Notes under the pieces: model-generated
The model's input: the letters and a program-made list of their open reading frames with translations, nothing else
Told to the model about the DNA's origin: nothing
Databases searched by the model: none
Program-made: the position numbers and the translations under genes
Source of the DNA: Kofleriaceae bacterium
Lineage (GTDB): Bacteria; Myxococcota_A; Polyangia; Haliangiales; Haliangiaceae
Direction of reading: 5' to 3'
DNA: 64,000 bases
NCBI GenBank assembly: GCA_046597055.1
Contig: JBKJLC010000131.1
Location: forward strand, 32,252 to 96,251
In this document: positions 1 through 34,819 of the stretch, piece after piece
Numbering within the stretch: position 1 is the stretch's first letter
How the letters are laid out: each line of letters begins with the position of its first letter

Positions 1-417
1 CTGATCGGCGGCATCGTGGCGGTGTCCGTGGGCGGGGGCGTCCTCAGCGTGGCCTCCCTGGTCGGGTTCATCACCCTGTTCGGGATCGCGACCCGGAACG
101 GGATCATGATGATCTCGCACTACGAGCACCTGCGGACGGTGGAGGGGGCCGGGTTCGACGACGCCGTCATCCGCGGCTCGCTGGAGCGGCTGTCGCCGGT
201 GCTGATGACGGCGCTGTGCGCCGGGCTGGCGTTGATCCCGCTCGTGCTGGCGGGCGGCGAGCCGGGCAACGAGCTCCAGGCGCCCATGGGCGTCGTGATC
301 CTCGGCGGGCTGCTGTCGTCAACGGCACTCAACATGCTGGTCGTCCCCGCCCTCTACGGCTGGCTGGCGCGCCCGCGCGATCCGATCGCCTCGTCGGCAC
401 CCGAGGCCCACGCGTGA
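1..417 (+). CDS. CusA/CzcA-family heavy-metal RND permease, C-terminal part (truncated by window edge)
   Basis: [57 protein letters not shown] are the RND C-terminal TM motifs; frame is open from base 1. Confidence 0.92.
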
Positions 418-1761: not shown

Positions 1762-1790
1762 TTGACGAACCCGTGCGTCGCGTCTACCCT
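1762..1790 (+). promoter_or_regulatory. sigma70-type promoter for a leaderless transcript
   Basis: TTGACG-17 nt-TACCCT, then 6 nt to ATG 1797; no SD. Confidence 0.7.
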
Positions 1791-1796
1791 GACCCC

Positions 1797-2129
1797 ATGT
1801 GGTCGCGGATCCTCGCGTTGATCCTGGTGCTGGCCTTGTGGCCGGCGCTGGGCGAGACCGTCGAGATCGCGATGCACCTCGCCCAGCACGGTGACCTCGC
1901 CCACGAGCCCACCGACCACCATGACGGCTCGCCCCTGGGCGCCGACGAGCACGGCTGTTCGGGGACGTTTCACCTGTGTGCGTCCGGGCACGTCAGCGCG
2001 CTGTCCGCACCACGGGTGACCGTGGTCGTGACCCGGCCGTCTCGCACGCCCGCGCCTGCCATCGCGGCCCCGCTCGACGAGCTCGGTCGCGACGCTCCCA
2101 TCCCGCCGATCCGTCCTCCGATCGCGTAG
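1797..2129 (+). CDS. Secreted leader protein with His/Cys cluster and C-terminal RPP motif (CzcI/DUF2946-like)
   Basis: Signal peptide MWSRILALILVLALWPALG; HLAQHGDLAH..DHH..EHGCSGTFHLC; ends PPIRPPIA; directly upstream of czcCBA. Confidence 0.75.
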   Translation: MWSRILALILVLALWPALGETVEIAMHLAQHGDLAHEPTDHHDGSPLGADEHGCSGTFHLCASGHVSALSAPRVTVVVTRPSRTPAPAIAAPLDELGRDAPIPPIRPPIA

Positions 2130-2219
2130 CGGTTTGCTCGCGTGCCCGGGCTTGCCTGGGCTCACCCGATCGAACACCTCGTGGGCACCGCTTGAACGGC
2201 GGCGCCGCACCGGAGGACC

Positions 2220-3461
2220 ATGCGACGCCACGGCTGGATAGCTACGATCACGCTTCTTCTTGGGCTCGCCGCCGAGCGCGGCCATGCAGATCCGATCACC
2301 CTGGACCAGGCGGTTGCGCGCGCTGCGCGACGACCCGGGGTGTCGATGGCGGGCGAAGACGTCGCCGCCGCACGCGGGCTGGCCGCCAGCGCGCGGCAGC
2401 CGACATACAACCCCGAGCTCGGGGCCGCGGTCGGCCCTCGCTTCGTCGGCGGCACCACCGGCGTCGCGGTCGACGTCTCGCTGGCCCAGACGTTCGAGCT
2501 GGGCGGCAAGCGTGCGGCCCGCGCCGCGGTCGCCGATGCCCGCACACGCGCGGCGATGGCCGGGCTCGCGGTGGCGACCCGCGACGCGGAGCTCGCGACC
2601 CGCCGCACCTTCCAGCTCGCCCTGGTGGCGCGGGCCCGCCTCGACGCATCCCGACAGGCCGAGGAGCTCGCGACCCAGATGGCGACCGCGACTCGCGAAC
2701 GCCAGGAGCTCGGGGCCGGAACCCAGCTGCAGGTCAACCTCGCCACCGCGGAGGTCGGGCGGGCTCGCCATGACCGGGTCGACGCCGAGAACCTGTACGA
2801 GGCGGCCATCGCCATGCTGGCGGCCGCGGCCGGCGCCGGCCCCGACGAGCGGCTCGAGCCTGCCGGCGAGCTCGGGGCCCTTCCGGAATCGCCGTGGACC
2901 AGGTCGGAGCTGGTCCGACGCGCGCTCGAACGCCGCCCCGAGCTCGTCCAGACCCGGTCGGAGCGCGAGGCCGCCAGCGCCGAGGTGAAGCTAGCTGACG
3001 CGCTGGCGCGCCCGGATCTGACGCTGGGTGTCTCGTACGGCTTCGAGCAGGACACCGACGTCACCGCCCAGACGGTGCGGGTCTCGGCCTCGATCCCCCT
3101 GCCGTTCCGCAACCGGAACCAGGGTAACCGCACCGCGAGCCGGGCCCGATTGCGGCGCGCCCAGCTCGATGAAGGTCGCCAGCGCACCGCGATCGTTCGC
3201 GAGGCGCACCTGAGCCTGCAGAGCTACGCCCGCGCCCGTGAGGGCGTGCTCGGCTTCGATCGCGAGATCAACGAGCGCCTGTTCGAGAACCTCGAGCTGG
3301 CACGGCAGTCGTTCGAGAGCGGCAAGATCGATTACTTCGAATTCAACGTGGTGCGCCGCGAGCTGATCGCGAGCCGGACCGCATACCTCGACGCCGTCAC
3401 CGAGGCTGTCGATGCCTGGCACGCGCTCGTGCGCGCCGCCGGCGAGGAACCGACCCGATGA
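2220..3461 (+). CDS. czcC: TolC/CzcC-family outer membrane efflux factor
   Basis: Signal peptide, YNPEL, Q.FELGGKR, ASIPLPFRNRNQG, FESGKIDY; SD GGAGGA. Confidence 0.9.
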   Translation: MRRHGWIATITLLLGLAAERGHADPITLDQAVARAARRPGVSMAGEDVAAARGLAASARQPTYNPELGAAVGPRFVGGTTGVAVDVSLAQTFELGGKRAARAAVADARTRAAMAGLAVATRDAELATRRTFQLALVARARLDASRQAEELATQMATATRERQELGAGTQLQVNLATAEVGRARHDRVDAENLYEAAIAMLAAAAGAGPDERLEPAGELGALPESPWTRSELVRRALERRPELVQTRSEREAASAEVKLADALARPDLTLGVSYGFEQDTDVTAQTVRVSASIPLPFRNRNQGNRTASRARLRRAQLDEGRQRTAIVREAHLSLQSYARAREGVLGFDREINERLFENLELARQSFESGKIDYFEFNVVRRELIASRTAYLDAVTEAVDAWHALVRAAGEEPTR

Positions 3462-4708
3462 GCGTATTCGCGCGCACCATCACCGCGGTGACGCTCGCGC
3501 TGGCCGCGGCAGCCTGCGGCAAGAGCGAGCCCGCCAAGCCCGCAGCCGAGGAGGGCCACGACGAGAAGGCCCACGACGAGAAGGCCCACGACGACCGCAA
3601 AGGTGAGCACGCTGGCGAGGAGGCCGGCGAGGGCGACGAGGAGGGCATGGTGACCCTCACCCCCGAGCAGATGGCCAGCGCCAAGATCACGGTGGCGAAC
3701 CTCGAGAAGCGGGCGGTCGCATCCGAGATCACCGCGACCGGTGAGCTGGCACCGCCCGACGACGGGCTCGCCCGGCTGGGTGCGAAGCTGTCCGGCCGGG
3801 TCACGAAGCTCAACGCGGGCGTCGGTGACCAGGTCAAGGCCGGTCAGGTCCTCGGCATCATCGACTCCCCCGAGCTCGGGCGCGCGAAGGCCGACTACAT
3901 CGCGGCCGCCGCGAGCGCTGCGGTGGCGCGCGAGACCGCGGATCGGGAGAAGGCGCTGTGGGAGAAGAAGATCTCGGCGGAGCGCGACTATCGCGTCGCC
4001 CAGGCCGAGGCAACCAAGACCCGGGCTGAAAAAGAAGCGGCCGAGGTTCGACTTCACACGCTCGGCCTGTCCGACGCGCAGCTCAAGCGGCTCACCGCCG
4101 ACCAGCATCATGGGTCGTCCGTGACGCTGATCGCGCCGATCGCCGGCGTCGTCGTCGAGCGGCCCGTGACCCTCGGTCAGATGATCGATCCGAGCGTCAC
4201 GACCTTCGTGATCATGGACCTGCGCAAGGTCTGGATCCAGGTCGACATCTACGAACGCGATCTCGCGCAGATCAAGCCGGGGGCCAAGGTCGAGGCGCGG
4301 GTCAAGGCCTGGGCCGATCGCGTCTTCGTCGGGACCATCGACTCGATCGGCGCGATCGTCGAGTCGCGCACCCGTACGATCAAGGTGCGGGTCGCGGTCG
4401 ACAACGCGGACGGGGCCCTCAAGCCGGGGATGTTCGCGACCGTGAAGCTGGCCGGGAGCACCGGCGAGGCCCGGGACGGGCTGTTCGTGCCAGCGACGGC
4501 GGTCCAGCGCGACGGTGAGCAGGCGATCGTGTTCGTGCCGGTCGGCGAGCGCGAGTTCCAGCTCCGCCCGATCGAGGTCGGGATCCGCACCAACGAATGG
4601 GTCGAGGTGACCAGGGGCCTGGCGCCCGGTGAACGGGTGGTGACCACCGGTTCGTTCCAGCTCAAGTCCGAGGCTCGCCGCGAGAGCTTCGGCGGGCACG
4701 AGCACTAG
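3458..4708 (+). CDS. czcB: CzcB-family RND membrane fusion protein with His/acidic N-terminus
   Basis: Lipobox LAAAAC; APIAGVVVER, TRTIKVR...LKPGMFA; HDEKA repeats. Confidence 0.92.
   Translation: MSVFARTITAVTLALAAAACGKSEPAKPAAEEGHDEKAHDEKAHDDRKGEHAGEEAGEGDEEGMVTLTPEQMASAKITVANLEKRAVASEITATGELAPPDDGLARLGAKLSGRVTKLNAGVGDQVKAGQVLGIIDSPELGRAKADYIAAAASAAVARETADREKALWEKKISAERDYRVAQAEATKTRAEKEAAEVRLHTLGLSDAQLKRLTADQHHGSSVTLIAPIAGVVVERPVTLGQMIDPSVTTFVIMDLRKVWIQVDIYERDLAQIKPGAKVEARVKAWADRVFVGTIDSIGAIVESRTRTIKVRVAVDNADGALKPGMFATVKLAGSTGEARDGLFVPATAVQRDGEQAIVFVPVGEREFQLRPIEVGIRTNEWVEVTRGLAPGERVVTTGSFQLKSEARRESFGGHEH
3553..3595 (+). repeat. 15-bp tandem repeat encoding HDEKA, about 3 copies
   Basis: ggcccacgacgagaa units. 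Confidence 0.8.
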
Positions 4709-4717
4709 GAGCCGACC

Positions 4718-7700
4718 ATGATCGAACGCTTGCTCGAGTGGTCGCTCAACAACCGGGTGATGGTCATCATCGCCTCGCTCTTGCTGGTGGTCGGCGGGTT
4801 GAACGCGATGTCGCGGCTGCCCATCGACGCCGTTCCCGACGTCACCAACGTCCAGGTCCAGATCCTCACCACCTCGCCCGCGCTCGGCCCCGAGGAGGTC
4901 GAGAAGTTCGTGACCACCCCGATCGAACAGGCGATGAGCGGATTGCCCGACCTGGTCGAGGTCCGGTCGACGTCTAAGTTCGGCCTGTCGGCGGTCACCG
5001 TCGTCTTCGAGGACGACACCGATATCTACTTCGCGCGTCAGCAGATCAGCGAGCGCCTGGGCGCCGCCAAGGAGGCGATCCCGCCGGGCTATGGCGAGCC
5101 CGAGATGGGGCCGGTCTCGACCGGCCTCGGCGAGATCTTCCAGTTCGAGGTCAAGGGCGAAGGCAAGACCGCGATGGAGCTCCGCACGATCCTCGAGTGG
5201 GAGATCGCGCCGCGCCTGCGGGCGGTGCCCGGCGTGGTCGAGGTCAACTCGTTCGGTGGGGAGCTCAAGACCTACGAGGTCCGGCTCCGTCCCGACGACC
5301 TGGCCCGGCTCGACGTGTCGCTCGCCCAGGTGGTCGAGGCGCTCGAGCGCAACAACGCCAACGCCGGCGGCGCCTACATCGAGCAGAACGCGGAGCAGTA
5401 CCTGGTGCGCGGCGAGGGCCTCATCACCTCGAAGGAGGACATCGGCGACATCGTCGTGTTCGCCGACGACGACGGCACGCCGGTGTACCTGCGTCACGTC
5501 GCGTCGGTCGAGCTGGCGGCCATGGTGCGCCAGGGCGCGGTCACCCGCGATGGTCGCGGCGAGGTCGTCACCGGGATCGTGATGATGCGCATGGGCGCGA
5601 ACTCGCGCCAGGTCGTCATGGACGTGAAGGACGCGATCGTGCGCATCGAACCGTCCCTCACCAAGCTCGGCGTCTCGATCGATCCCTTCTACGACCGCAC
5701 CGAGCTGATCCAGAAGACGATCTACACGGTCGCCAAGAGCCTGATCGAAGGCGGGCTCCTCGTGGTGGTCGTCCTGTTCCTGATGCTGCGGAACCTGCGG
5801 GCGGGCCTCCTGGTGTCGATGGTGATCCCGCTGTCGATGCTGGTCGCGTTCCTCGGCATGCGGCAGTTCGACGTCTCGGGCAACCTGATGTCGCTGGGGG
5901 CGATCGACTTCGGCCTGATCGTCGACGGAGCGGTCATCGTGATCGAGAACTCGGTCCGGCTGCTGGCCGAACGTTCGCACCAGCTGGGTCGACCGGTCAC
6001 CTCGGCCGAACGCACGGAGATCGTGCGCCAGGCCAGCCGCGAGGTGCTGCGGTCGGCGACCTTCGGCGTGTTCATCATCGCGATCGTCTACCTGCCGATC
6101 CTGTCGCTCACCGGCATCGAGGGCAAGATGTTCAAGCCCATGGCGCTGACGGTGCTGTTCGCGCTCGCGGGCGCCCTGGTGCTGGCGATGACCTTCATCC
6201 CGGCGGTCGCGTCGCTGCTGCTGCCGAAGCAGCTGTCCGAGAAGGAGAGCTTCATCGTCGCGGGCGTACGCCGCGTCTACGAGCCCGCGCTTCGGGCCGC
6301 GCTGCGGGCGCGCTGGGTCGTGGTCGGCGTGGCCACCGTGGTGCTGGTGGGCGCCGGCCTGGTGGCCACCCGACTCGGCTCCGAGTTCGTGCCCAAGCTC
6401 GACGAGGGCGCGATCGCCCTGCAGGCGATCCGGCTGCCGAGCGTCTCGCTCGAGGAGTCGGTGCGACAGACGACCGCGATGGAGAAGGTGTTGCAGCAGT
6501 TCCCGGAGGTGACCACCGTCATCTCGAAGACGGGGCGAGCCGAGATCGCGACCGATCCGATGGGTGTGGAGATCTCCGACATCTTCGTGATGCTCAAGCC
6601 CCACGACGAGTGGACGACCGCCGACACCCGCGAAGGCCTGGTCGCGAAGATGGAAGCCGCGCTGAAGCAGTCGATCCCCGGCCAGAACTTCAGCTTCTCG
6701 CAGCCGATCGAGCTCCGGGTCGCCGAGCTGATCTCGGGAGTCCGCTCCGACGTCGCCCTCAAGATCTATGGCGACGACATGGTCGCCCTCGAGCGGATCG
6801 CGCAGGAAGCGGTGTCGGTGCTGTCCAAGGTGCCGGGGGCTGCCGACGTGAAGGCCGAGCAGACCGCAGGGCTCCCGGTGCTGCGTGTCGTGATCGACCG
6901 GCGCGCGATCGCGCGCTTCGGGCTCAACGCAGCCGACGTCCTCGACGTGGTCTCGACCGTCGGCGGGCGCCAGGTTGGCGTCGTCCTCGAAGGCCAGCGT
7001 CGCTTCGACCTGACGGTCCGGTTCGAACCCAGCGTTCGCGACTCGGTGCACAAGGTCGCCGACCTCAAGGTGCGGGCCCCGTCAGGAGCGCTGGTCCGGC
7101 TCGACGAGCTGGCCGACATCCGCATCGAGGACGGCCCGGCGCAGATCAGCCACGAGATGGGCCGGCGCCGCGTGACGGTCGAGCTCAACGTGCGCGGCCG
7201 CGATCTGGGCGGGTTCGTCGCCGACGCGCGCGCCGCGCTCGACCGCTCGGGCGTGATCCCCGCCGGCTACTTCACCGACTGGGGTGGTCAGTTCGAGAAC
7301 TTGCAGGAGGCGACCCGACGTCTTGCGATCGTCGTGCCGCTCGCGCTGGCGCTCATCTTCGTGATGCTGTTCGCGGCCAATGGCTCGGCGAAGCTGGCGG
7401 CGATCATCTACCTGAACGTGCCGTTCGCCGTGACCGGTGGCCTGTTCGCGCTGGCGCTTCGCGGCTTGCCGCTCTCGATCTCCGCCGGCGTCGGCTTCAT
7501 CGCGCTGTTCGGGGTCGCCGTGCTCAACGGGCTGGTGCTCGTCAGTTACCTCGAGGAGCGGCGCCGCGGCGGGCTGCCGGCCGCAGCAGCGGCCTACGAG
7601 GGGGCACGGGTCCGGTTGCGGCCGGTGCTCATGACCGCGCTGGTCGCGTCGCTCGGCTTCATCCCGATGGCGGTCGCGTCCGGCGCGGGCGCCGAGGTGC

Positions 7701-7891
7701 AGAAGCCGCTGGCCACGGTGGTCATCGGTGGGCTGGTGACGTCGACCCTGCTGACGTTGCTGGTCCTCCCCACCATCTACGCCTGGCTCATGGCTCGGGC
7801 GGATCCCCCCCGTCCACTCGGATCGCTGGCAGCCCACCCGCCCGTGACGCCGTCCGAGCCGGTCGAGACCGAACCGACGGAGGTGCCGTGA
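4718..7891 (+). CDS. czcA: CzcA-family heavy-metal RND permease
   Basis: [48 protein letters not shown]; 1057 aa. Confidence 0.96.
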
Positions 7892-8357
7892 TGGCGCAGG
7901 TCCCAGCAACATCGCTGGCCAGCTCGGGATCACCGAGGCGCGGGGCGATCTGCTGCCCGAGGACAAGGTCGCCGCGATCGCCGAGCTGGCGCGCTCGGCA
8001 GACGCGGTCGCGATGGTCGGCGACGGCGTCAATGACGCGCCCGCGATGGCCAAGGCCACGGTCGGGATCACGATGGGCGCCGGCGGCTCCGACGTCGCGA
8101 TGGAGACCGCAGATGTCGCGTTGATGGCCGACGATCTGCGGGCGCTACCGTTCGCGGTCGGCCTGAGCCGCGCCTGCCGGCGGATCATTCGTCAGAATCT
8201 GTGGGCCAGTCTTGGCATGGTCGGGTTTCTCATCCCGGCCACGCTGTTCGGGTTCGCCGGCATCGGCATCGCGGTGGCCCTCCACGAGGGCTCCACGCTG
8301 GTGGTGGTCGCCAACGCGCTGCGGTTGCTCGCCCACCGCGATCCACGCGCGAGCTGA
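7891..8357 (+). pseudogene. Heavy-metal P1B-type ATPase remnant (C-terminal ~150 aa only)
   Basis: From ~7911: LLPEDKV...[11 protein letters not shown]...[12 protein letters not shown]...IIRQNL...[16 protein letters not shown]. No DKTGT or CPC region; the ATG at 7891 coupled to czcA is out of frame. Confidence 0.85.
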
Positions 8358-8480: not shown

Positions 8481-8524
8481 TTGACCGGGTGCCGCCGGTG
8501 CCGTATTCAAGAAATCAATTGAAT
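8481..8524 (+). promoter_or_regulatory. Promoter with ArsR-type operator
   Basis: TTGACC-17 nt-TATTCA; inverted repeat ATTCAA-N8-TTGAAT (8505-8524) overlaps the -10 and the start codon. Confidence 0.75.
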
Positions 8525-9209
8525 GCTGAGTAGCTCACCGCCCCATGCTGCCAAGCAGCGCATCTACGAGCAGTTCGCCCGTATCGCGAAGGCGCTGGCC
8601 TCCCCGGCCCGCCTCGAGCTGCTGGATCTCCTCGCCCAGGGCGAGCGCTCGGTCGACGCGCTCGCCCGCGCGACCGAGCTGTCGGTTGCCAACACGTCGC
8701 AGCACCTGCAGGTGCTTGCGGCCGCCCGCCTGACCGAGTCGCGCCGCGACGGTCAGCGCGTCGTCTACCGGGTCGCCGACGCCTCCGTCGAGACGCTGTG
8801 GCACGCGCTCCGCCACACCGCCGAGCGCCAGCTCGCCGAGCTCGACGGCGTGGCCCGTGACTACCTGATCGGGCGCGATGACTACCAGCCCATCGATCGC
8901 CAGGAGCTGGCCCGGCGCCTGCGCGCTGGCACGGTCACGCTGATCGACGTGCGCCCGGCGGAGGAGTACCAGCAGGCGCACATCGACGGCGCGATCTCGG
9001 TTCCGATCGACCAGCTACCGACGTGGGTCCGTACCGCCCCGAAGCGCCGCCAGGTGGTCGCGTACTGCCGAGGCCCGTACTGCGTGTACGCGCTGCAGGC
9101 GGTCGCCGCCCTTCGCAAGCGCGGCATCGCCGCCGTGCGTGCCGAGGACGGCGTGTCCGAGTGGCGCGCCGCCGGGCTTCCCATCGCCGCCGGGGCGGGC
9201 GCGCCATGA
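8523..9209 (+). CDS. ArsR/SmtB regulator fused to a rhodanese domain
   Basis: KALASPARLELLDLLAQGERSV...NTSQHL wHTH; IDVRP.EEY..AHIDGA; VAYCRGPYCVYA. Confidence 0.93.
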   Translation: MLSSSPPHAAKQRIYEQFARIAKALASPARLELLDLLAQGERSVDALARATELSVANTSQHLQVLAAARLTESRRDGQRVVYRVADASVETLWHALRHTAERQLAELDGVARDYLIGRDDYQPIDRQELARRLRAGTVTLIDVRPAEEYQQAHIDGAISVPIDQLPTWVRTAPKRRQVVAYCRGPYCVYALQAVAALRKRGIAAVRAEDGVSEWRAAGLPIAAGAGAP

Positions 9210-9940
9210 TCTTTCGACCGTTCTATCGCTTCGAGACCGGATGTGCCGCGTACGTCTTCGGCTGCGGCGGCCAGGGCCTGGCGTGCGTGGTGGACCCGCA
9301 GGAGTCCGAGGTCGAGGCGTACGTCGCGTTCGCCGCGTCCAAGGGCATGCGCATCACGCACGTCTTCGACACCCACGTGCACGCCGACCATCGGTCGGGC
9401 GGTCGGGCGTTGGCCGCGCGCACCGGCGCCACCTACGGCCTGCACCGCAGCGCCGACGTGGCCTACCCGTTCGAGCCGCTCGACGACGGCCAGGTGATCG
9501 CGCTCGGCAACACGATCGTCAGCGTCCTGCACACGCCGGGGCACACCGCCGAGAGCATCTGCCTGGTCGTCAGCGATCTCCGCCGAGGCCCGTCGCCGTG
9601 GTTCGTGTGCACAGGCGACACGTTGTTCGTCGGTGCGGTGGGCCGTCCCGATCTGCCGGGACACGAGCGCGAGAACGCGGCGACGCTCCATCGGAGCATC
9701 CGCGATCGGCTGCTCGTCCTCGGCGACGAGGTCGAGATCTACCCGGCGCACTTTGCGGGCTCGGCGTGCGGCGCGGGGATGAGCGGCAAGCCGAGCAGCA
9801 CGATCGCCTTCGAGCGGCGCTGGAACCCGCTGCTCGGCCTCGACGAGTCCGCGTTCATCGACGAGCTCGCGACCACCGTCGCGCCCAAGCCGGCCGAGAT
9901 GGCGGCGATCCTGCTCGCGAATCGTGGCAAGGCACCATGA
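9206..9940 (+). CDS. MBL-fold hydrolase (persulfide dioxygenase-like)
   Basis: THVHADH, HTPGHT, GDTLFVGAVGRPDL, YPAHFAGSACG; ATGA overlap with the upstream gene. Confidence 0.9.
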   Translation: MIFRPFYRFETGCAAYVFGCGGQGLACVVDPQESEVEAYVAFAASKGMRITHVFDTHVHADHRSGGRALAARTGATYGLHRSADVAYPFEPLDDGQVIALGNTIVSVLHTPGHTAESICLVVSDLRRGPSPWFVCTGDTLFVGAVGRPDLPGHERENAATLHRSIRDRLLVLGDEVEIYPAHFAGSACGAGMSGKPSSTIAFERRWNPLLGLDESAFIDELATTVAPKPAEMAAILLANRGKAP

Positions 9941-11202
9941 ACCCGCCCCGCGTTCACCTCGGGATCCGGGAGAACCTCGGGCAGTTCTCGCTGCTCGTCG
10001 TCGTCAACGCCTTCGTCGGCGCGATGATCGGGCTCGAGCGCAGCATCTTGCCGGCGATCGCCGAGGCGGACTTCGGGCTGGCCGCGAAGAGCGCGATCCT
10101 TTCCTTCATCGTGGCGTTCGGGGTCACCAAGGCGCTGACCAACTACGTCGCCGGCCGCCTGTCGGATCGCATCGGCCGCAAGCCGGTGCTGATCGCCGGC
10201 TGGCTGGTCGCGGTGCCGGTACCGCTGCTCCTGATGTGGGCGCCGACCTGGGGTTGGGTGCTGGTCGCGAACGGGTTCCTCGGCGTCAGCCAGGGGCTCA
10301 CCTGGTCGACGACCGTGATCATGAAGATCGATCTCGCGGGCGCCAAGCGCCGCGGCCTGGCGATGGGGCTCAACGAGTTCGCCGGCTACTTCGCCGTGGC
10401 GGTGAGCGCGCTCGCGACCGGCTGGATCGCGGCCCGCTACGGCCTGCGACCGGAGCCGTTTTATCTCGGGGTCGGTTATGTGGCCCTGGGCCTGGGCCTG
10501 TCGGTGTTCCTGGTGCGCGAGACGATCGGCCACGTGAACCACGAATCGCGAGTCCACGGTGAGCTGCCGTCGGACGGAGCCCCCACCCAGCGCGAGGTGT
10601 TCTGGCGGACGACGCTCTTCGACCGGAACTTGTCGAGCGTCACCCAGGCCGGGCTCGTCAACAACCTGAACGACGGCATGGCGTGGGGCCTGTTCCCGCT
10701 GTTCTTCGCGGCCGCGAAGATGAGCCTCGACCAGATCGCGATCCTCGCGGCGATCTATCCGGCGACCTGGGGCCTGGCCCAGCTGGGGACCGGCGCGTGG
10801 TCCGATCACGTCGGGCGCAAGCGGCTGATCGTCGCCGGCATGTGGATCCAGGCAGTCGGCATCGTCGTGGTGGTGCTGGCGGGCGGCTTCCTCGGGTTCG
10901 CGGCCGGGGCCGCGCTGCTGGGGGTCGGCACGGCCTTTGTCTACCCGACGCTGCTCGCGGCGATCGGCGATGTCGCCCATCCGTCGTGGCGCGCGTCGTC
11001 GGTGGGCGTGTATCGCCTGTGGCGCGACCTCGGCTACGCGATCGGTGCCGTGCTGGCCGGCCTCGCCGCCGATGCGTTCGGGCTGTCGGCCGCGATGGGG
11101 ATCATCGCCGGCCTGACGTTCGTCTCGGGTGCGCTGGTGGCGCTTCGCATGACCGAGACGCTGCCGCGCGCCCCAGCAGGGCAAGCCGCCTTGCGCGCCT
11201 GA
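9937..11202 (+). CDS. MFS transporter
   Basis: GRLSDRIGRK motif A, 12-TM pattern, GVYRLWRDLGYAIGA. Confidence 0.92.
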   Translation: MNPPRVHLGIRENLGQFSLLVVVNAFVGAMIGLERSILPAIAEADFGLAAKSAILSFIVAFGVTKALTNYVAGRLSDRIGRKPVLIAGWLVAVPVPLLLMWAPTWGWVLVANGFLGVSQGLTWSTTVIMKIDLAGAKRRGLAMGLNEFAGYFAVAVSALATGWIAARYGLRPEPFYLGVGYVALGLGLSVFLVRETIGHVNHESRVHGELPSDGAPTQREVFWRTTLFDRNLSSVTQAGLVNNLNDGMAWGLFPLFFAAAKMSLDQIAILAAIYPATWGLAQLGTGAWSDHVGRKRLIVAGMWIQAVGIVVVVLAGGFLGFAAGAALLGVGTAFVYPTLLAAIGDVAHPSWRASSVGVYRLWRDLGYAIGAVLAGLAADAFGLSAAMGIIAGLTFVSGALVALRMTETLPRAPAGQAALRA

Positions 11203-11311: not shown

Positions 11312-11632
11312 ATGGTTCGGGCCTTTCTCGTCCTCGTGCTGACCGTCCTGGTCGGCTGCGGGTTCGTGGGCACGGGCCTCGACGGTGCCTGCACCGTCGA
11401 CGATTGCGAGGCCGAGCGCGGCGACGACGACCCGGGCGCGGGTGCGGGTCAGGGCGAGTCGGACGATTGCCCCCCGTTCTGCAGTGGTTGCGTGCGCTTG
11501 CCGGTGCACACCGTCCCGCGCGTCGCGATCCAGGACGTGCCGGTTCGCGTGGCACCGATCACGACCGTGAGCCTCGTGGTGACGCCCTCGGCTCCTCCTC
11601 GGAGCGGGTTGTTCCGACCGCCGCGCGCCTGA
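11312..11632 (+). CDS. Secreted Cys-rich leader protein with C-terminal RPP motif
   Basis: Hydrophobic N-terminus; C..DDC and DDCPPFCSGC; ends SGLFRPPRA; alternative start at 11309. Confidence 0.75.
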   Translation: MVRAFLVLVLTVLVGCGFVGTGLDGACTVDDCEAERGDDDPGAGAGQGESDDCPPFCSGCVRLPVHTVPRVAIQDVPVRVAPITTVSLVVTPSAPPRSGLFRPPRA

Positions 11633-11678: not shown

Positions 11679-12038
11679 ATGAAGCGTCTCATCGTCATCG
11701 CGTTTTCGGCCGTCATGTCACTCGCCGCCTGCGACAAGGGCGGCGGCCAAGCCACCAAGCATACCGAGGCCGCTGGCGCGGCTGGGAAACCCGCGCAACC
11801 TGCTGGCACGCCGGCTCAGCCCGCCCAGCACGCCGCGGCGGCGGTGAAGCCCGGCTCGCACGAGGACTGGTGCGGCGAGCACGCCGTGGCCGAGTCGCAG
11901 TGCACCCGCTGCAACGCGGAGCTCACGCCGGCGTTCAAGGCGACCGGCGACTGGTGCGAAGAGCACGGGTTGCCCGAGTCGCAGTGCCTCAAGTGCAACC
12001 CGGACCTCAAGATCGTCCGGCCGCCCAAGGCCGAGTAG
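11679..12038 (+). CDS. Lipoprotein with two WC-x-EH...ES-x-C-xx-C metal-binding repeats
   Basis: Lipobox LAAC; DWCGEHAVAESQCTRCN and DWCEEHGLPESQCLKCNP; SD GAGGAG. Confidence 0.85.
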   Translation: MKRLIVIAFSAVMSLAACDKGGGQATKHTEAAGAAGKPAQPAGTPAQPAQHAAAAVKPGSHEDWCGEHAVAESQCTRCNAELTPAFKATGDWCEEHGLPESQCLKCNPDLKIVRPPKAE

Positions 12039-12041
12039 CCG

Positions 12042-13388
12042 ATGCGCTCGAAACGTCTGGGCGCGGCCGCGATGATCATCGCGGTGCTGGGCACGCTCGC
12101 GTGCGGACCGGGCTCCCCCGCCGAGCAGCAGCCGGCCGCGCAAGCGGCGGCGGTCGAGGGTGCCATGTGCGCGGAGCACGGCGTGCTCGAGGCGATCTGC
12201 ACCAAGTGCAACCCGAAGTTGATCCCGGTGTTCCAGGCCAAGGGCGACTGGTGCCCGGAGCACGGCTTCCCGGAGTCGATCTGCCCCATCTGTCATCCCG
12301 AGCGTGGCGGCAAGCCGGCCGGCGACGTCGGCAGCGATGCTGCGCCCGCCGATGGGACCAAGGTCCGGCTGAAGTCGCCGGACACGGCGCGGGTCGCGGG
12401 CATCACCACCATGACCGCCGAGGCCTCGCGCGAGGGCGCGCGACTCGAGGTGGTGGCGACCCTCTCGTATGACGCGCGGAAGCGCGCCGAGGTCAACGCG
12501 CGTGCGGCCGGGGTCGTGCGCACGCTGCACGTGGATGTCGGCGAGGTCGTCAAGGCGGGCGCCCCGCTCGCCACGATCGACAGCGCGTCGGTCGGCACCG
12601 ATCGCTCGCGGCTGGCGGCGTCGTCGTCGCGGGTCCGGATCGCCGAGCAGAACCACGAGCGCGAAACGGCGCTCGAGCGCACGGGCGTGTCGTCGCAGCG
12701 CGAGGTGCTCGATGCGCTGCAGGAGCTCGAGGCGGCGCGGGCCGACCGGCTCGGCGCGGTCGCGGCCCTGGGCGCGGTCGGCGGCGGCGCCCACGGCAGC
12801 AGCTACGTGCTGCGAAGCCCGCTCACCGGCACCGTCACCGGGCGCCAGGCCACGATCGGTCACATGGTCGACCTCGAGGAGATCCTGTTCGAGATCGTCG
12901 ACGTCTCCAGCATGCGCGCCGAGCTCGAGATCCCGGAGTCCGAGCTCGGCCTGGTCCGGGTCGGACAGGCGGTGACCCTGGTCGTCGACGGCCTGGGCGA
13001 GCGCGAGCTGGCCGGACGGATCGACTACATCGCCCCCGAGATCGGCCGCGAGACCCGCACGGCGAAGGCGCGCGTGATCCTCGACAACCCCGACGGCGCC
13101 CTGCGCGCGAACATGTTCGCCCGCGCCCGGATCGCGCTCGGCGCAGCGCGGCCCAGCGTGATGATCTCGCGGGACGCGCTCCAGCGCGCCGGCGCGGTCC
13201 CGCTCGCGTTCGTCGAGCTCGCGGTCGGCGAGTACGAGACCCGCCGGGTCAAGGTCGGGCGCACCGACGGCGACCAGGTCGAGATCCTCACCGGCGTGAA
13301 GCCCGGGGAGCGGGTGGTCATCAAGGGAAGCTTCCTGCTCAAGACCGAGACGCTGAAGGGCAGCATCGGCGCCGGCTGCTGCGAGTGA
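12042..13388 (+). CDS. RND membrane fusion protein with N-terminal Cys/His repeats
   Basis: MCAEHGVLEAICTKCNP / DWCPEHGFPESICPICHP; LRSPLTGTV, ETRTAKAR, LRANMF; ends GAGCCE. Confidence 0.92.
   Translation: MRSKRLGAAAMIIAVLGTLACGPGSPAEQQPAAQAAAVEGAMCAEHGVLEAICTKCNPKLIPVFQAKGDWCPEHGFPESICPICHPERGGKPAGDVGSDAAPADGTKVRLKSPDTARVAGITTMTAEASREGARLEVVATLSYDARKRAEVNARAAGVVRTLHVDVGEVVKAGAPLATIDSASVGTDRSRLAASSSRVRIAEQNHERETALERTGVSSQREVLDALQELEAARADRLGAVAALGAVGGGAHGSSYVLRSPLTGTVTGRQATIGHMVDLEEILFEIVDVSSMRAELEIPESELGLVRVGQAVTLVVDGLGERELAGRIDYIAPEIGRETRTAKARVILDNPDGALRANMFARARIALGAARPSVMISRDALQRAGAVPLAFVELAVGEYETRRVKVGRTDGDQVEILTGVKPGERVVIKGSFLLKTETLKGSIGAGCCE

Positions 13389-31396: not shown

Positions 31397-34819
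<3,423 letters not shown>

Follow-up and report, generated by a model that had tools for sequence, protein, structure and literature searches.

The closest described relatives of the element reported here are short upstream open reading frames (uORFs) whose translation governs a metal-handling gene downstream. In the cutFOG operon of Rhodobacter capsulatus, ribosome stalling on CutF unmasks cutO's Shine-Dalgarno (SD) sequence (PMC9973294), and copper-induced stalling at a PPP motif overrides EF-P (bioRxiv 10.1101/2025.02.05.636593). In CruR, copper relieves a stall at RAPP and Rho terminates (PMC9426467); peptides of the RAPP/RGPP type lie upstream of metal genes, with CruR's two Pro codons in the P and A sites (PMC12992588). 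CopL is described as a cis-acting copper regulator (PMC9973294). Here we analyse a 110-aa uORF (the leader) that precedes a CzcCBA-type exporter operon of the resistance-nodulation-division (RND) class on a 64,000-nt stretch of DNA (the window) from a Kofleriaceae bacterium (GenBank assembly GCA_046597055.1, contig JBKJLC010000131.1, forward-strand positions 32,252 to 96,251). From its sequence and by analogy with CutF, we think it reasonably probable that the leader is a CutF/CopL-like cis-acting sensor that turns on translation of the exporter.

Like CutF, the leader is short and apparently exported, combines a metal motif with a C-terminus rich in proline, and would free the SD of a detoxification gene when a ribosome stalls on it. 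CutF carries CxxxC and PPP, senses copper and acts on a multicopper oxidase, whereas in the leader family the motifs are H...EHGC-x4-H-x-C-x-CH and RPPxx* (* marking the stop codon) and the target is an RND pump; the CutF anti-SD (CTTC) sits in a stem-loop described as intergenic, whereas in the family studied here the anti-SD often lies in the stall codons. The survey in PMC9973294 collected 5,334 CutF-like proteins, whose commonest neighbours are outer-membrane efflux protein (OEP) genes annotated CusC/CzcC/SilC and some of which may sense Ni or Co. These uORFs before OEP genes (including the nodes CusD and SilD) share both their definition and their commonest neighbour with our leader, which falls within the published rules on length and proline position (<150 aa, PP ≤15 residues from the C-terminus) as well as those on context (a Cys/His motif and a same-strand metal-homeostasis neighbour within 1000 nt). 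For the Sec signal peptide that these rules also ask for, the leader offers a candidate, the hydrophobic helix at residues 2-14. RNA that hides the SD within reach of a stalled ribosome, as in CutF, was computed at the window locus and on average across the family, not at every homolog. The leader family may already be among the 5,334; the CutF-like lists consist mostly of Pseudomonadota and Bacteroidota and the string ‘Myxo’ is absent from the main text of PMC9973294.

In CruR, a DUF2946 protein, a spacer of 45 residues likewise fixes how far the metal motif lies from a Pro-Pro near the C-terminus (PMC9426467). It differs in combining CXXC with RAPP, in targeting an importer, in acting through Rho, in being relieved by copper and in having a dispensable signal peptide, whereas our family combines C-x6-C-x-C with RPP. 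SecM, ApdA, ApdP and ApcA resemble the leader as exported uORFs with a near-C-terminal stall that frees a downstream SD (SecM), but they monitor Sec/YidC, lack a metal motif and have their Arg two positions ahead of the Pro in the P site (PMC12992588). CzcI of Cupriavidus metallidurans is a small uORF upstream of czcCBA, suggested to be a metal-sensing regulator; as described in PMC9973294 it has no C-terminal proline motif, which sets it apart from the leader.

Since CutF already works in this way and CutF-like uORFs are known upstream of CusC/CzcC/SilC-type genes, the leader's mechanism would not be a new principle. In a literature search with subscription journals largely outside its scope, we found no paper on this His/Cys leader family, no experimentally shown non-copper sensor of the CutF/CruR type and no report of an anti-SD within stall codons. 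New here are an unclassified His/Cys subfamily, RPP in place of RAPP, association with pumps of divalent-cation type, a plausibly leaderless mRNA and an anti-SD placed in the stall codons.

Materials & Methods

Family counts derive from 211 loci, in which 207 profile matches yielded 158 distinct leaders that end in a stop codon. Of these, 148 had both a PP motif and a downstream start that could be called; removal of six doubtful starts left 142 (seven starts were reset by hand), dropping sequences >85% identical left 130, and taking out one mis-indexed locus, two wrong starts and one non-PP ending left 126. Subsets of n = 110 and n = 113 demanded a recognisable SD together with a gap or length range. 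Kin are not independent across loci, so p values of the family RNA tests overstate significance. In the ribosome footprint model, pairing was forbidden under a footprint ending at +15. Because MAFFT aligned only the tail and SD of 26 close intergenic regions, swap tests were used in place of RNAalifold or a covariance model.

Results

Pairing of the leader tail with the czcC ribosome-binding site

The leader ends in PPIRPPIA, its last codons being CGT CCT CCG ATC GCG TAG, and GTCCTCCG (2113-2120), within the R-P-P codons, is the exact reverse complement of CGGAGGAC (2211-2218), which spans the czcC SD. The stop codon and the czcC ATG (2220) are 90 nt apart. All eight anti-SD:SD pairs also occur in the minimum-energy fold, with ensemble probabilities of 0.90-0.99 whether 180 or 460 nt are folded, and an exact complement of ≥8 nt between a gene tail and the next ribosome-binding region was found in 4 of 576 control pairs. 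Set against synonymous recodings, the native leader tail pairs with the SD region at z −3.7. The preliminary description of this locus had reported the 110-aa ORF and its RPP codons, this complementarity, the 90-nt gap and the inner hairpin (Table 1), and our coordinates and pair probabilities agree with it; its proposed outer helix, 2128-2142 with 2180-2192, is complementary on paper and has an ensemble probability of about 0. Neither whole-region folding z-score is remarkable (−0.46 for 2090-2235, no stabler than shuffles, and −1.36), so stability alone is no evidence.

With the footprint of a ribosome imposed, the predicted cost of opening falls from 8.1 to 6.6 kcal/mol for the stretch from SD to AUG and from 14.9 to 10.8 kcal/mol for −16 to +4. 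The predicted gain is limited to 1.5-4 kcal/mol because GAGG (2213-2216) can re-pair with the secondary CCUC under the footprint; if real, it would amount to roughly tenfold or more, with the SD not fully freed.

Codon bias and pairing across the family

The first proline of the final PP is encoded by CCT in 73 of 126 loci, against 14.1 ± 3.5 expected from each locus's own usage, and the second in just 11. Elsewhere CCT accounts for 10-11% of the remaining prolines of these leaders and of the genes downstream, and for 18-20% where the proline is the first of another PP pair; in the host genome it encodes the first Pro in 20 of 684 R-P-P motifs (crude gene calls), in line with the earlier remark that the RPP codons are unusual. 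CCU is normally avoided at the first-Pro position and CCC is the slowest Pro codon (PMC8129111). Since CCC was used there in only 12 of 126 loci, selection for CCUCC is favoured over codon slowness, which is less likely as the sole cause of the bias.

In 96 of 126 loci (31 at p ≤ 0.05) the native tail is a better partner for the SD region than its synonymous recodings are. A leader's own tail-SD combination outdoes swapped ones by 1.5 kcal/mol (−1.5), compared with +0.27 in 130 control gene pairs. At −1.24 (worst p 0.01) the effect survives in subsets of about 67 loci that share <50% identity, and it is weaker below 40%. In a sliding scan from the first Pro, signal appeared at −3 to +3, at +9 to +12 and at −24, weakly at −150 and −90, and not at −60, −45, −18, −12 or beyond +18. 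With the footprint in place, the initiation region becomes cheaper to open by a median of 2.30 kcal/mol (n = 110) versus 0.12 in 130 control pairs, and at least 4 nt of the SD are paired to the footprint in 49 of 110 loci versus 6 of 130 controls.

The preliminary description had proposed folding and covariation of the anti-SD/SD pair as a check. Pairing of the SD is predicted, and in the 40 loci that have both CCTCC and GGAGG, the nucleotide 3′ of CCTCC and that 5′ of GGAGG covary (p 0.007-0.016); a second covariation, at the Arg wobble base, fell short and is weighed in the Discussion. In other homologs the SD is predicted to pair with the stop region rather than the X-P-P codons. Three loci (L003/L067, L005/L071 and L007/L095) have CCUCC just past the stop, with TGACCTCC across the stop codon complementing GGAGGTCA of the SD; they keep CCT in RPP too and so, by sequence, carry two alternative anti-SDs.

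A conserved leader family

Leader relatives number 182 among 50%-identity representatives (E ≤ 0.001). A single-protein search gave leader matches in 29 of 61 related genomes (4 of the 30 returned loci were not leaders); matches occur in 52 of 147 genomes of the order, a tally that takes in one unpublished genome not otherwise used, and in 42 of 401 genomes of a phylum sample. A single-protein locus scan of genome contigs gave no match, and a broad alignment yielded no usable pattern. Named records bear the titles Kofleriaceae, Myxococcales, Polyangia, Acidobacteriota, Thermoanaerobaculia and one Coxiellaceae. The host genome holds a single leader of the type defined by our 127-sequence alignment.

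In that alignment, P16, E20, E23, H27, G32, H36, E51, G53, C54, H59, C61, C63, P107 and P108 are ≥90% conserved. Hardly any position is conserved in the 52 residues between C54 and P107, yet the standard deviation of this Cys-to-Pro ruler's length is 1.1, against 1.9 for a 17-residue His-rich segment; scoring of relatives over their whole length may favour equal lengths. PP lies ≤7 residues from the stop in 154 of 158 loci, as RPP in 130, and is followed by exactly two residues in 137, the residues just before the stop varying among A, V, G and S. By pattern match, 113 of 150 listed relatives have RPP, 37 another ending and none R-x-P-P. The kinship with RAPP/RAGP arrest peptides that had been suggested for the leader does not hold at the level of the motif: RPP is neither.

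The leader has no Pfam family (no DUF2946 match at E ≤ 1, short of the Pfam gathering threshold). CopL, which heads copA, gives its name to the best profile match of the family, CopL_fam (NF033807), reached by 64 of 127 members at E ≤ 0.1 (best 1.5e-8); the window leader scores 14.2 bits, below the curated cut-off of 40. DUF2946 (PF11162) is weakly matched by 18 of 127 members at E ≤ 0.1 (best 8e-5), and the leader's Atlas neighbours include clusters named DUF2946 or DUF6660 (cosine 0.96-0.97). On these sequence comparisons the family is a distant branch of the CopL/DUF2946/DUF6660 group. An AlphaFold model of the leader (pLDDT 78, pTM 0.47) contains helices at residues 2-14 and 18-31 and is otherwise mostly coil; residues 2-14 form a hydrophobic helix after an Arg in both model and alignment, and Foldseek found no match to the model in the PDB. 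At three further loci (L098, L114 and L121) two leaders lie on opposite strands, which suggests back-to-back leader-headed operons.

A plausibly leaderless mRNA

A spacing of 6 nt between promoter and ATG is that expected for transcription starting at the ATG, and TTGACG-17-TACCCT ends 6 nt before the leader ATG, so the mRNA is plausibly leaderless, as had been proposed. A strict consensus scan of the locus returned no promoter and no intrinsic terminator; the promoter call rests on cross-genome conservation: TTGAC stands at the matching place, 25-65 nt upstream, in 44 of 128 homologs, whereas a control window shifted upstream by 100 nt contains it in 1 of 128. A loose promoter-plus-start pattern, for which there was no control set, fits 63 of 128 homologs with a modal gap of 6 nt, and an SD-like site precedes a candidate leader start in just 18 of 128. 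On this conserved spacing, a promoter of constitutive type would give rise to a leaderless mRNA.

The pump operon

The gene after the leader is OEP-like in 140 of 148 loci; of the remaining eight, six were scanned against Pfam and gave four adaptors, one OEP and one gene with no match. In the window, a pump above the TIGR00914 cut-off stands with outer-membrane factor and adaptor genes (Table 1), which identifies a heavy-metal RND (CusA/CzcA) system. The pump motif in transmembrane segment 4 (TM4) was readable in 24 of 37 long-enough loci and was DFG in 23 of these, which we take to be the signature of CzcA-type (divalent cation) pumps.

Table 1. Positions of the leader, its RNA elements and the exporter genes in the window.
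Feature	Position	Strand	Details
Sigma-70-like promoter (putative)	1762..1790	+	TTGACG-17 nt-TACCCT, 6 nt 5′ of ATG; TTGAC in 44/128 homologs
Leader uORF	1797..2129	+	110 aa, ATG 1797 to TAG 2129; probably on leaderless mRNA, ATG = predicted +1
Hydrophobic N-terminal helix, signal peptide or signal anchor	1800..1844	+	Near-invariant Pro16 at end (126/127)
Second helix	1848..1904	+	E20, E23, H27, then G32, H36, each in 117-121/127; helix 18-31 in model
Candidate metal site E-H-G-C-x4-H-x-C-x-C-H	1947..1991	+	C54 124, H59 124, C61 123, C63 119 of 127
Linker, fixed length, variable sequence	1992..2111	+	C54-P107 52.5 ± 1.1 residues (123 sequences); mean top-residue frequency 0.24
R-P-P codons CGT CCT CCG, candidate stall site and anti-SD (2113-2120)	2112..2120	+	Codon reading, pairing prediction, family codon bias
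Inner hairpin GCCCGGG-CUUG-CCUGGGC	2144..2161	+	Pair probabilities 0.86-1.0
Secondary CCUC	2177..2180	+	Able to re-pair with GAGG 2213-2216 under imposed footprint (fold prediction)
czcC SD and start	2211..2222	+	GGAGG 2212-2216 and ATG 2220, 3 nt apart
CzcC-like outer-membrane factor	2220..3461	+	Pfam OEP E 2e-40
CzcB-like periplasmic adaptor, His-rich N-terminus	3458..4708	+	HlyD_D23 E 5e-56; TIGR00999 best match, below cut-off
CusA/CzcA-family RND pump	4718..7891	+	DFG-x-IVD TM4 motif; TIGR00914 1240 bits, cut-off 701

A second leader and the neighbouring genes

A second leader (11312-11632, +) has a C-x3-C-x2-C motif, ends in GLFRPPRA* and matches DUF2946 at E 0.03. Downstream of it come a small gene of lipoprotein-like type, an adaptor and a further RND pump, and the leader's upstream CCT CCT codons have predicted pairing with the SD that follows. 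Homologs of this type occur in 15 of 147 genomes, with CCU at the first Pro of the final PP in 10 of 13 scored loci; the two leader types are related, since one locus matches both leader queries. The small gene (11679-12038, +) and the N-terminus of the adaptor (12042-13388, +) have in common a repeated C-x-E-H-x4-5-C-x2-C motif, possibly a metal-binding module.

Upstream, a third RND operon (G000:C41:25297-32668, locus L212, reaching into window 1-417) is headed by a BlaI/CopY-type repressor (Penicillinase_R) and also has an OEP, an adaptor and a 314-aa membrane protein, presumably M56-like. An EamA-family transporter with a long His-rich C-terminal tail (422-1474, +) lies between this pump and the leader promoter. 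The island thus has one repressor-headed and two leader-headed pumps. Right after czcA, an ORF without a Pfam match at 1e-3 (8013-8357, +) appears to be a C-terminal P-type ATPase remnant, to judge from a GDGVNDAP motif that we take to mark such enzymes.

The statement in the preliminary description that no metal-responsive transcription factor is visible in the window was too strong: an ArsR/SmtB-rhodanese fusion (8523-9209) passes NF033788 with 81 bits (cut-off 55). It probably heads its own operon (8523-11202, +), with a hydrolase-like ORF (no Pfam match at 1e-3) and an MFS transporter, which looks like a sulfur-handling unit rather than a czc regulator.

Discussion

The leader family is a real, conserved regulatory element, whose architecture, Cys-to-Pro ruler, codon bias, SD complementarity and gene neighbourhood can be read directly from the DNA. 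In the mechanism that we favour, a constitutive-type promoter would yield a leaderless mRNA, on which, with no ribosome on the last leader codons, the RPP codons (in relatives, the stop-codon region) are predicted to sequester the czcC SD by pairing; codon bias and covariation support this model of sequestration. Export of the leader would be co-translational. If Pro107 occupied the P site, as the CruR analogy suggests, the footprint would reach the stop codon and the His/Cys motif would lie 43-53 residues from the peptidyl-transferase centre, at about the exit of tunnel plus SecY. Binding of a divalent metal (Zn, Co, Cd or Ni, judging from the pump type) might lessen the pulling force or alter folding and, by analogy with CutF, make the ribosome dwell at RPP; EF-P would, as with CutF, be expected to resolve the pause without metal. 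The dwelling ribosome would cover anti-SD and stop region, and czcC initiation would rise, here by the predicted 1.5-4 kcal/mol. Dwelling induced by metal, the sign seen in CutF, would be the sensible direction for an exporter, and an Arg ahead of prolines causes strong pausing in RPPP reporters (PMC8129111). That the leader is exported, binds metal and stalls its ribosome at RPP is what we infer, and so are the direction of the response and the metal concerned. A fuller version, to which we would subscribe only tentatively, is a widespread family of leaderless nascent-chain sensors that read, through the membrane, Zn, Co, Cd or Ni rather than copper in the periplasm, and whose nine nucleotides of stall codons are dual-coded as an anti-SD, acting as both brake and lock on a CzcCBA exporter.

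Several observations weigh against this interpretation. As to stalling, RPP lacks the spacer residue of RAPP/RGPP/RAGP (PMC12992588), the proline tail of CutF alone is described as not a strong staller, the host genome encodes EF-P, and the window copy has lost the third Cys of the metal motif (S63 instead of C63). As to release of the SD, the SD and ATG of czcC are separated by only 3 nt, and in the equilibrium model of the window locus the SD stays about 95% paired even after the footprint is imposed; the idea that a ribosome held at RPP frees the czcC SD has family sequence evidence and the CutF precedent behind it, and here predicts partial release. The reading of the RPP codons themselves as the anti-SD stands at the window locus and does not extend to most homologs: the SD is predicted to pair with the X-P-P codons in 31 of 126 and with the whole footprint in 54 of 126. 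Among CCT loci, such X-P-P pairing of the SD is predicted in 23 of 66; CCT loci gain no more from the footprint than non-CCT loci (p 0.47), and there is no significant link between CCT and an SD of the GGAGG form (p 0.15). The footprint brings nothing to 24 of 126 homologs and ≥3 kcal/mol to only 51. Swaps between nearest relatives are marginal (own favoured in 36 versus 26 of 63 pairs, p 0.02), the Arg wobble base shows no significant covariation (p 0.14-0.27), and downstream starts were picked with our SD score, some by hand.

The alternative that fares best, though we regard it as unlikely, is plain translational coupling or a pause at termination, with control exerted at termination, or at transcription by an unseen factor, and no elongation stall at RPP. 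The stop codon stands exactly two codons past PP in 137 of 158 loci, the strongest locus-specific complementarity falls at the stop region (+9, z −5.1), and a terminating ribosome would cover the RPP codons as well. Coupling, however, needs no near-invariant R-P-P, no fixed Cys-to-Pro ruler and no metal motif, and the residues before the stop vary.

We give a low probability to transcriptional control as in CruR, in which a stalled ribosome would keep Rho from loading onto the leader's C-rich 3′ half, with pairing of the SD as a secondary matter. CruR does act via Rho (PMC9426467), gaps are long (median 111 nt) and the last 150 nt of leaders are C-rich (skew 0.15 versus 0.03 in the downstream gene), but such a skew is expected from Pro and Ala codons, the intrinsic terminator scan was negative, and the locus-specific SD complementarity and CCT bias would go unexplained. 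Similarly improbable, in our view, is a real switch with another input or sign, responding to Cu/Ag, thiol-disulfide state or secretion capacity, or with metal relieving a default stall as in CruR. All studied relatives are copper-responsive, CruR and CutF are opposite in sign, and disulfides of the kind proposed for CutF could form among the two or three Cys in the periplasm; against this, the pumps are of DFG type in 23 of 24 loci, the leader motif is His/Glu-rich rather than CXXC, and metal-relieved stalling would turn the exporter off when it is needed. Very unlikely is the reading in which the RNA pairing is incidental and the leader product is a stable, metal-binding accessory protein of the pump, either periplasmic or anchored in the membrane; this would suit the conservation of E20, E23, H27 and H36 beyond a minimal site and the precedent of CzcI, upstream of czcCBA without a proline tail (PMC9973294), but cannot account for the CCT bias, the footprint effect or the fixed linker and sits poorly with a model that is mostly coil (pTM 0.47).

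Conclusions

The mechanism put forward in the preliminary description, in which a stalled ribosome switches on the czcCBA exporter, is probably right in outline and less new than it was rated there. CruR and CutF, the two mechanistically worked-out leaders that we found, both respond to copper and do so in opposite directions, and the large group upstream of RND pumps has merely been listed. The synonymous CCT bias lets RNA pairing be separated from peptide stalling and offers a signature for finding leaders missed by Pfam and NCBIfam. The family also tests whether a bare RPP can be a conditional stall, and it provides a compact test case for a trans-membrane nascent-chain switch by which divalent metals would control exporters in Myxococcota and Acidobacteriota.

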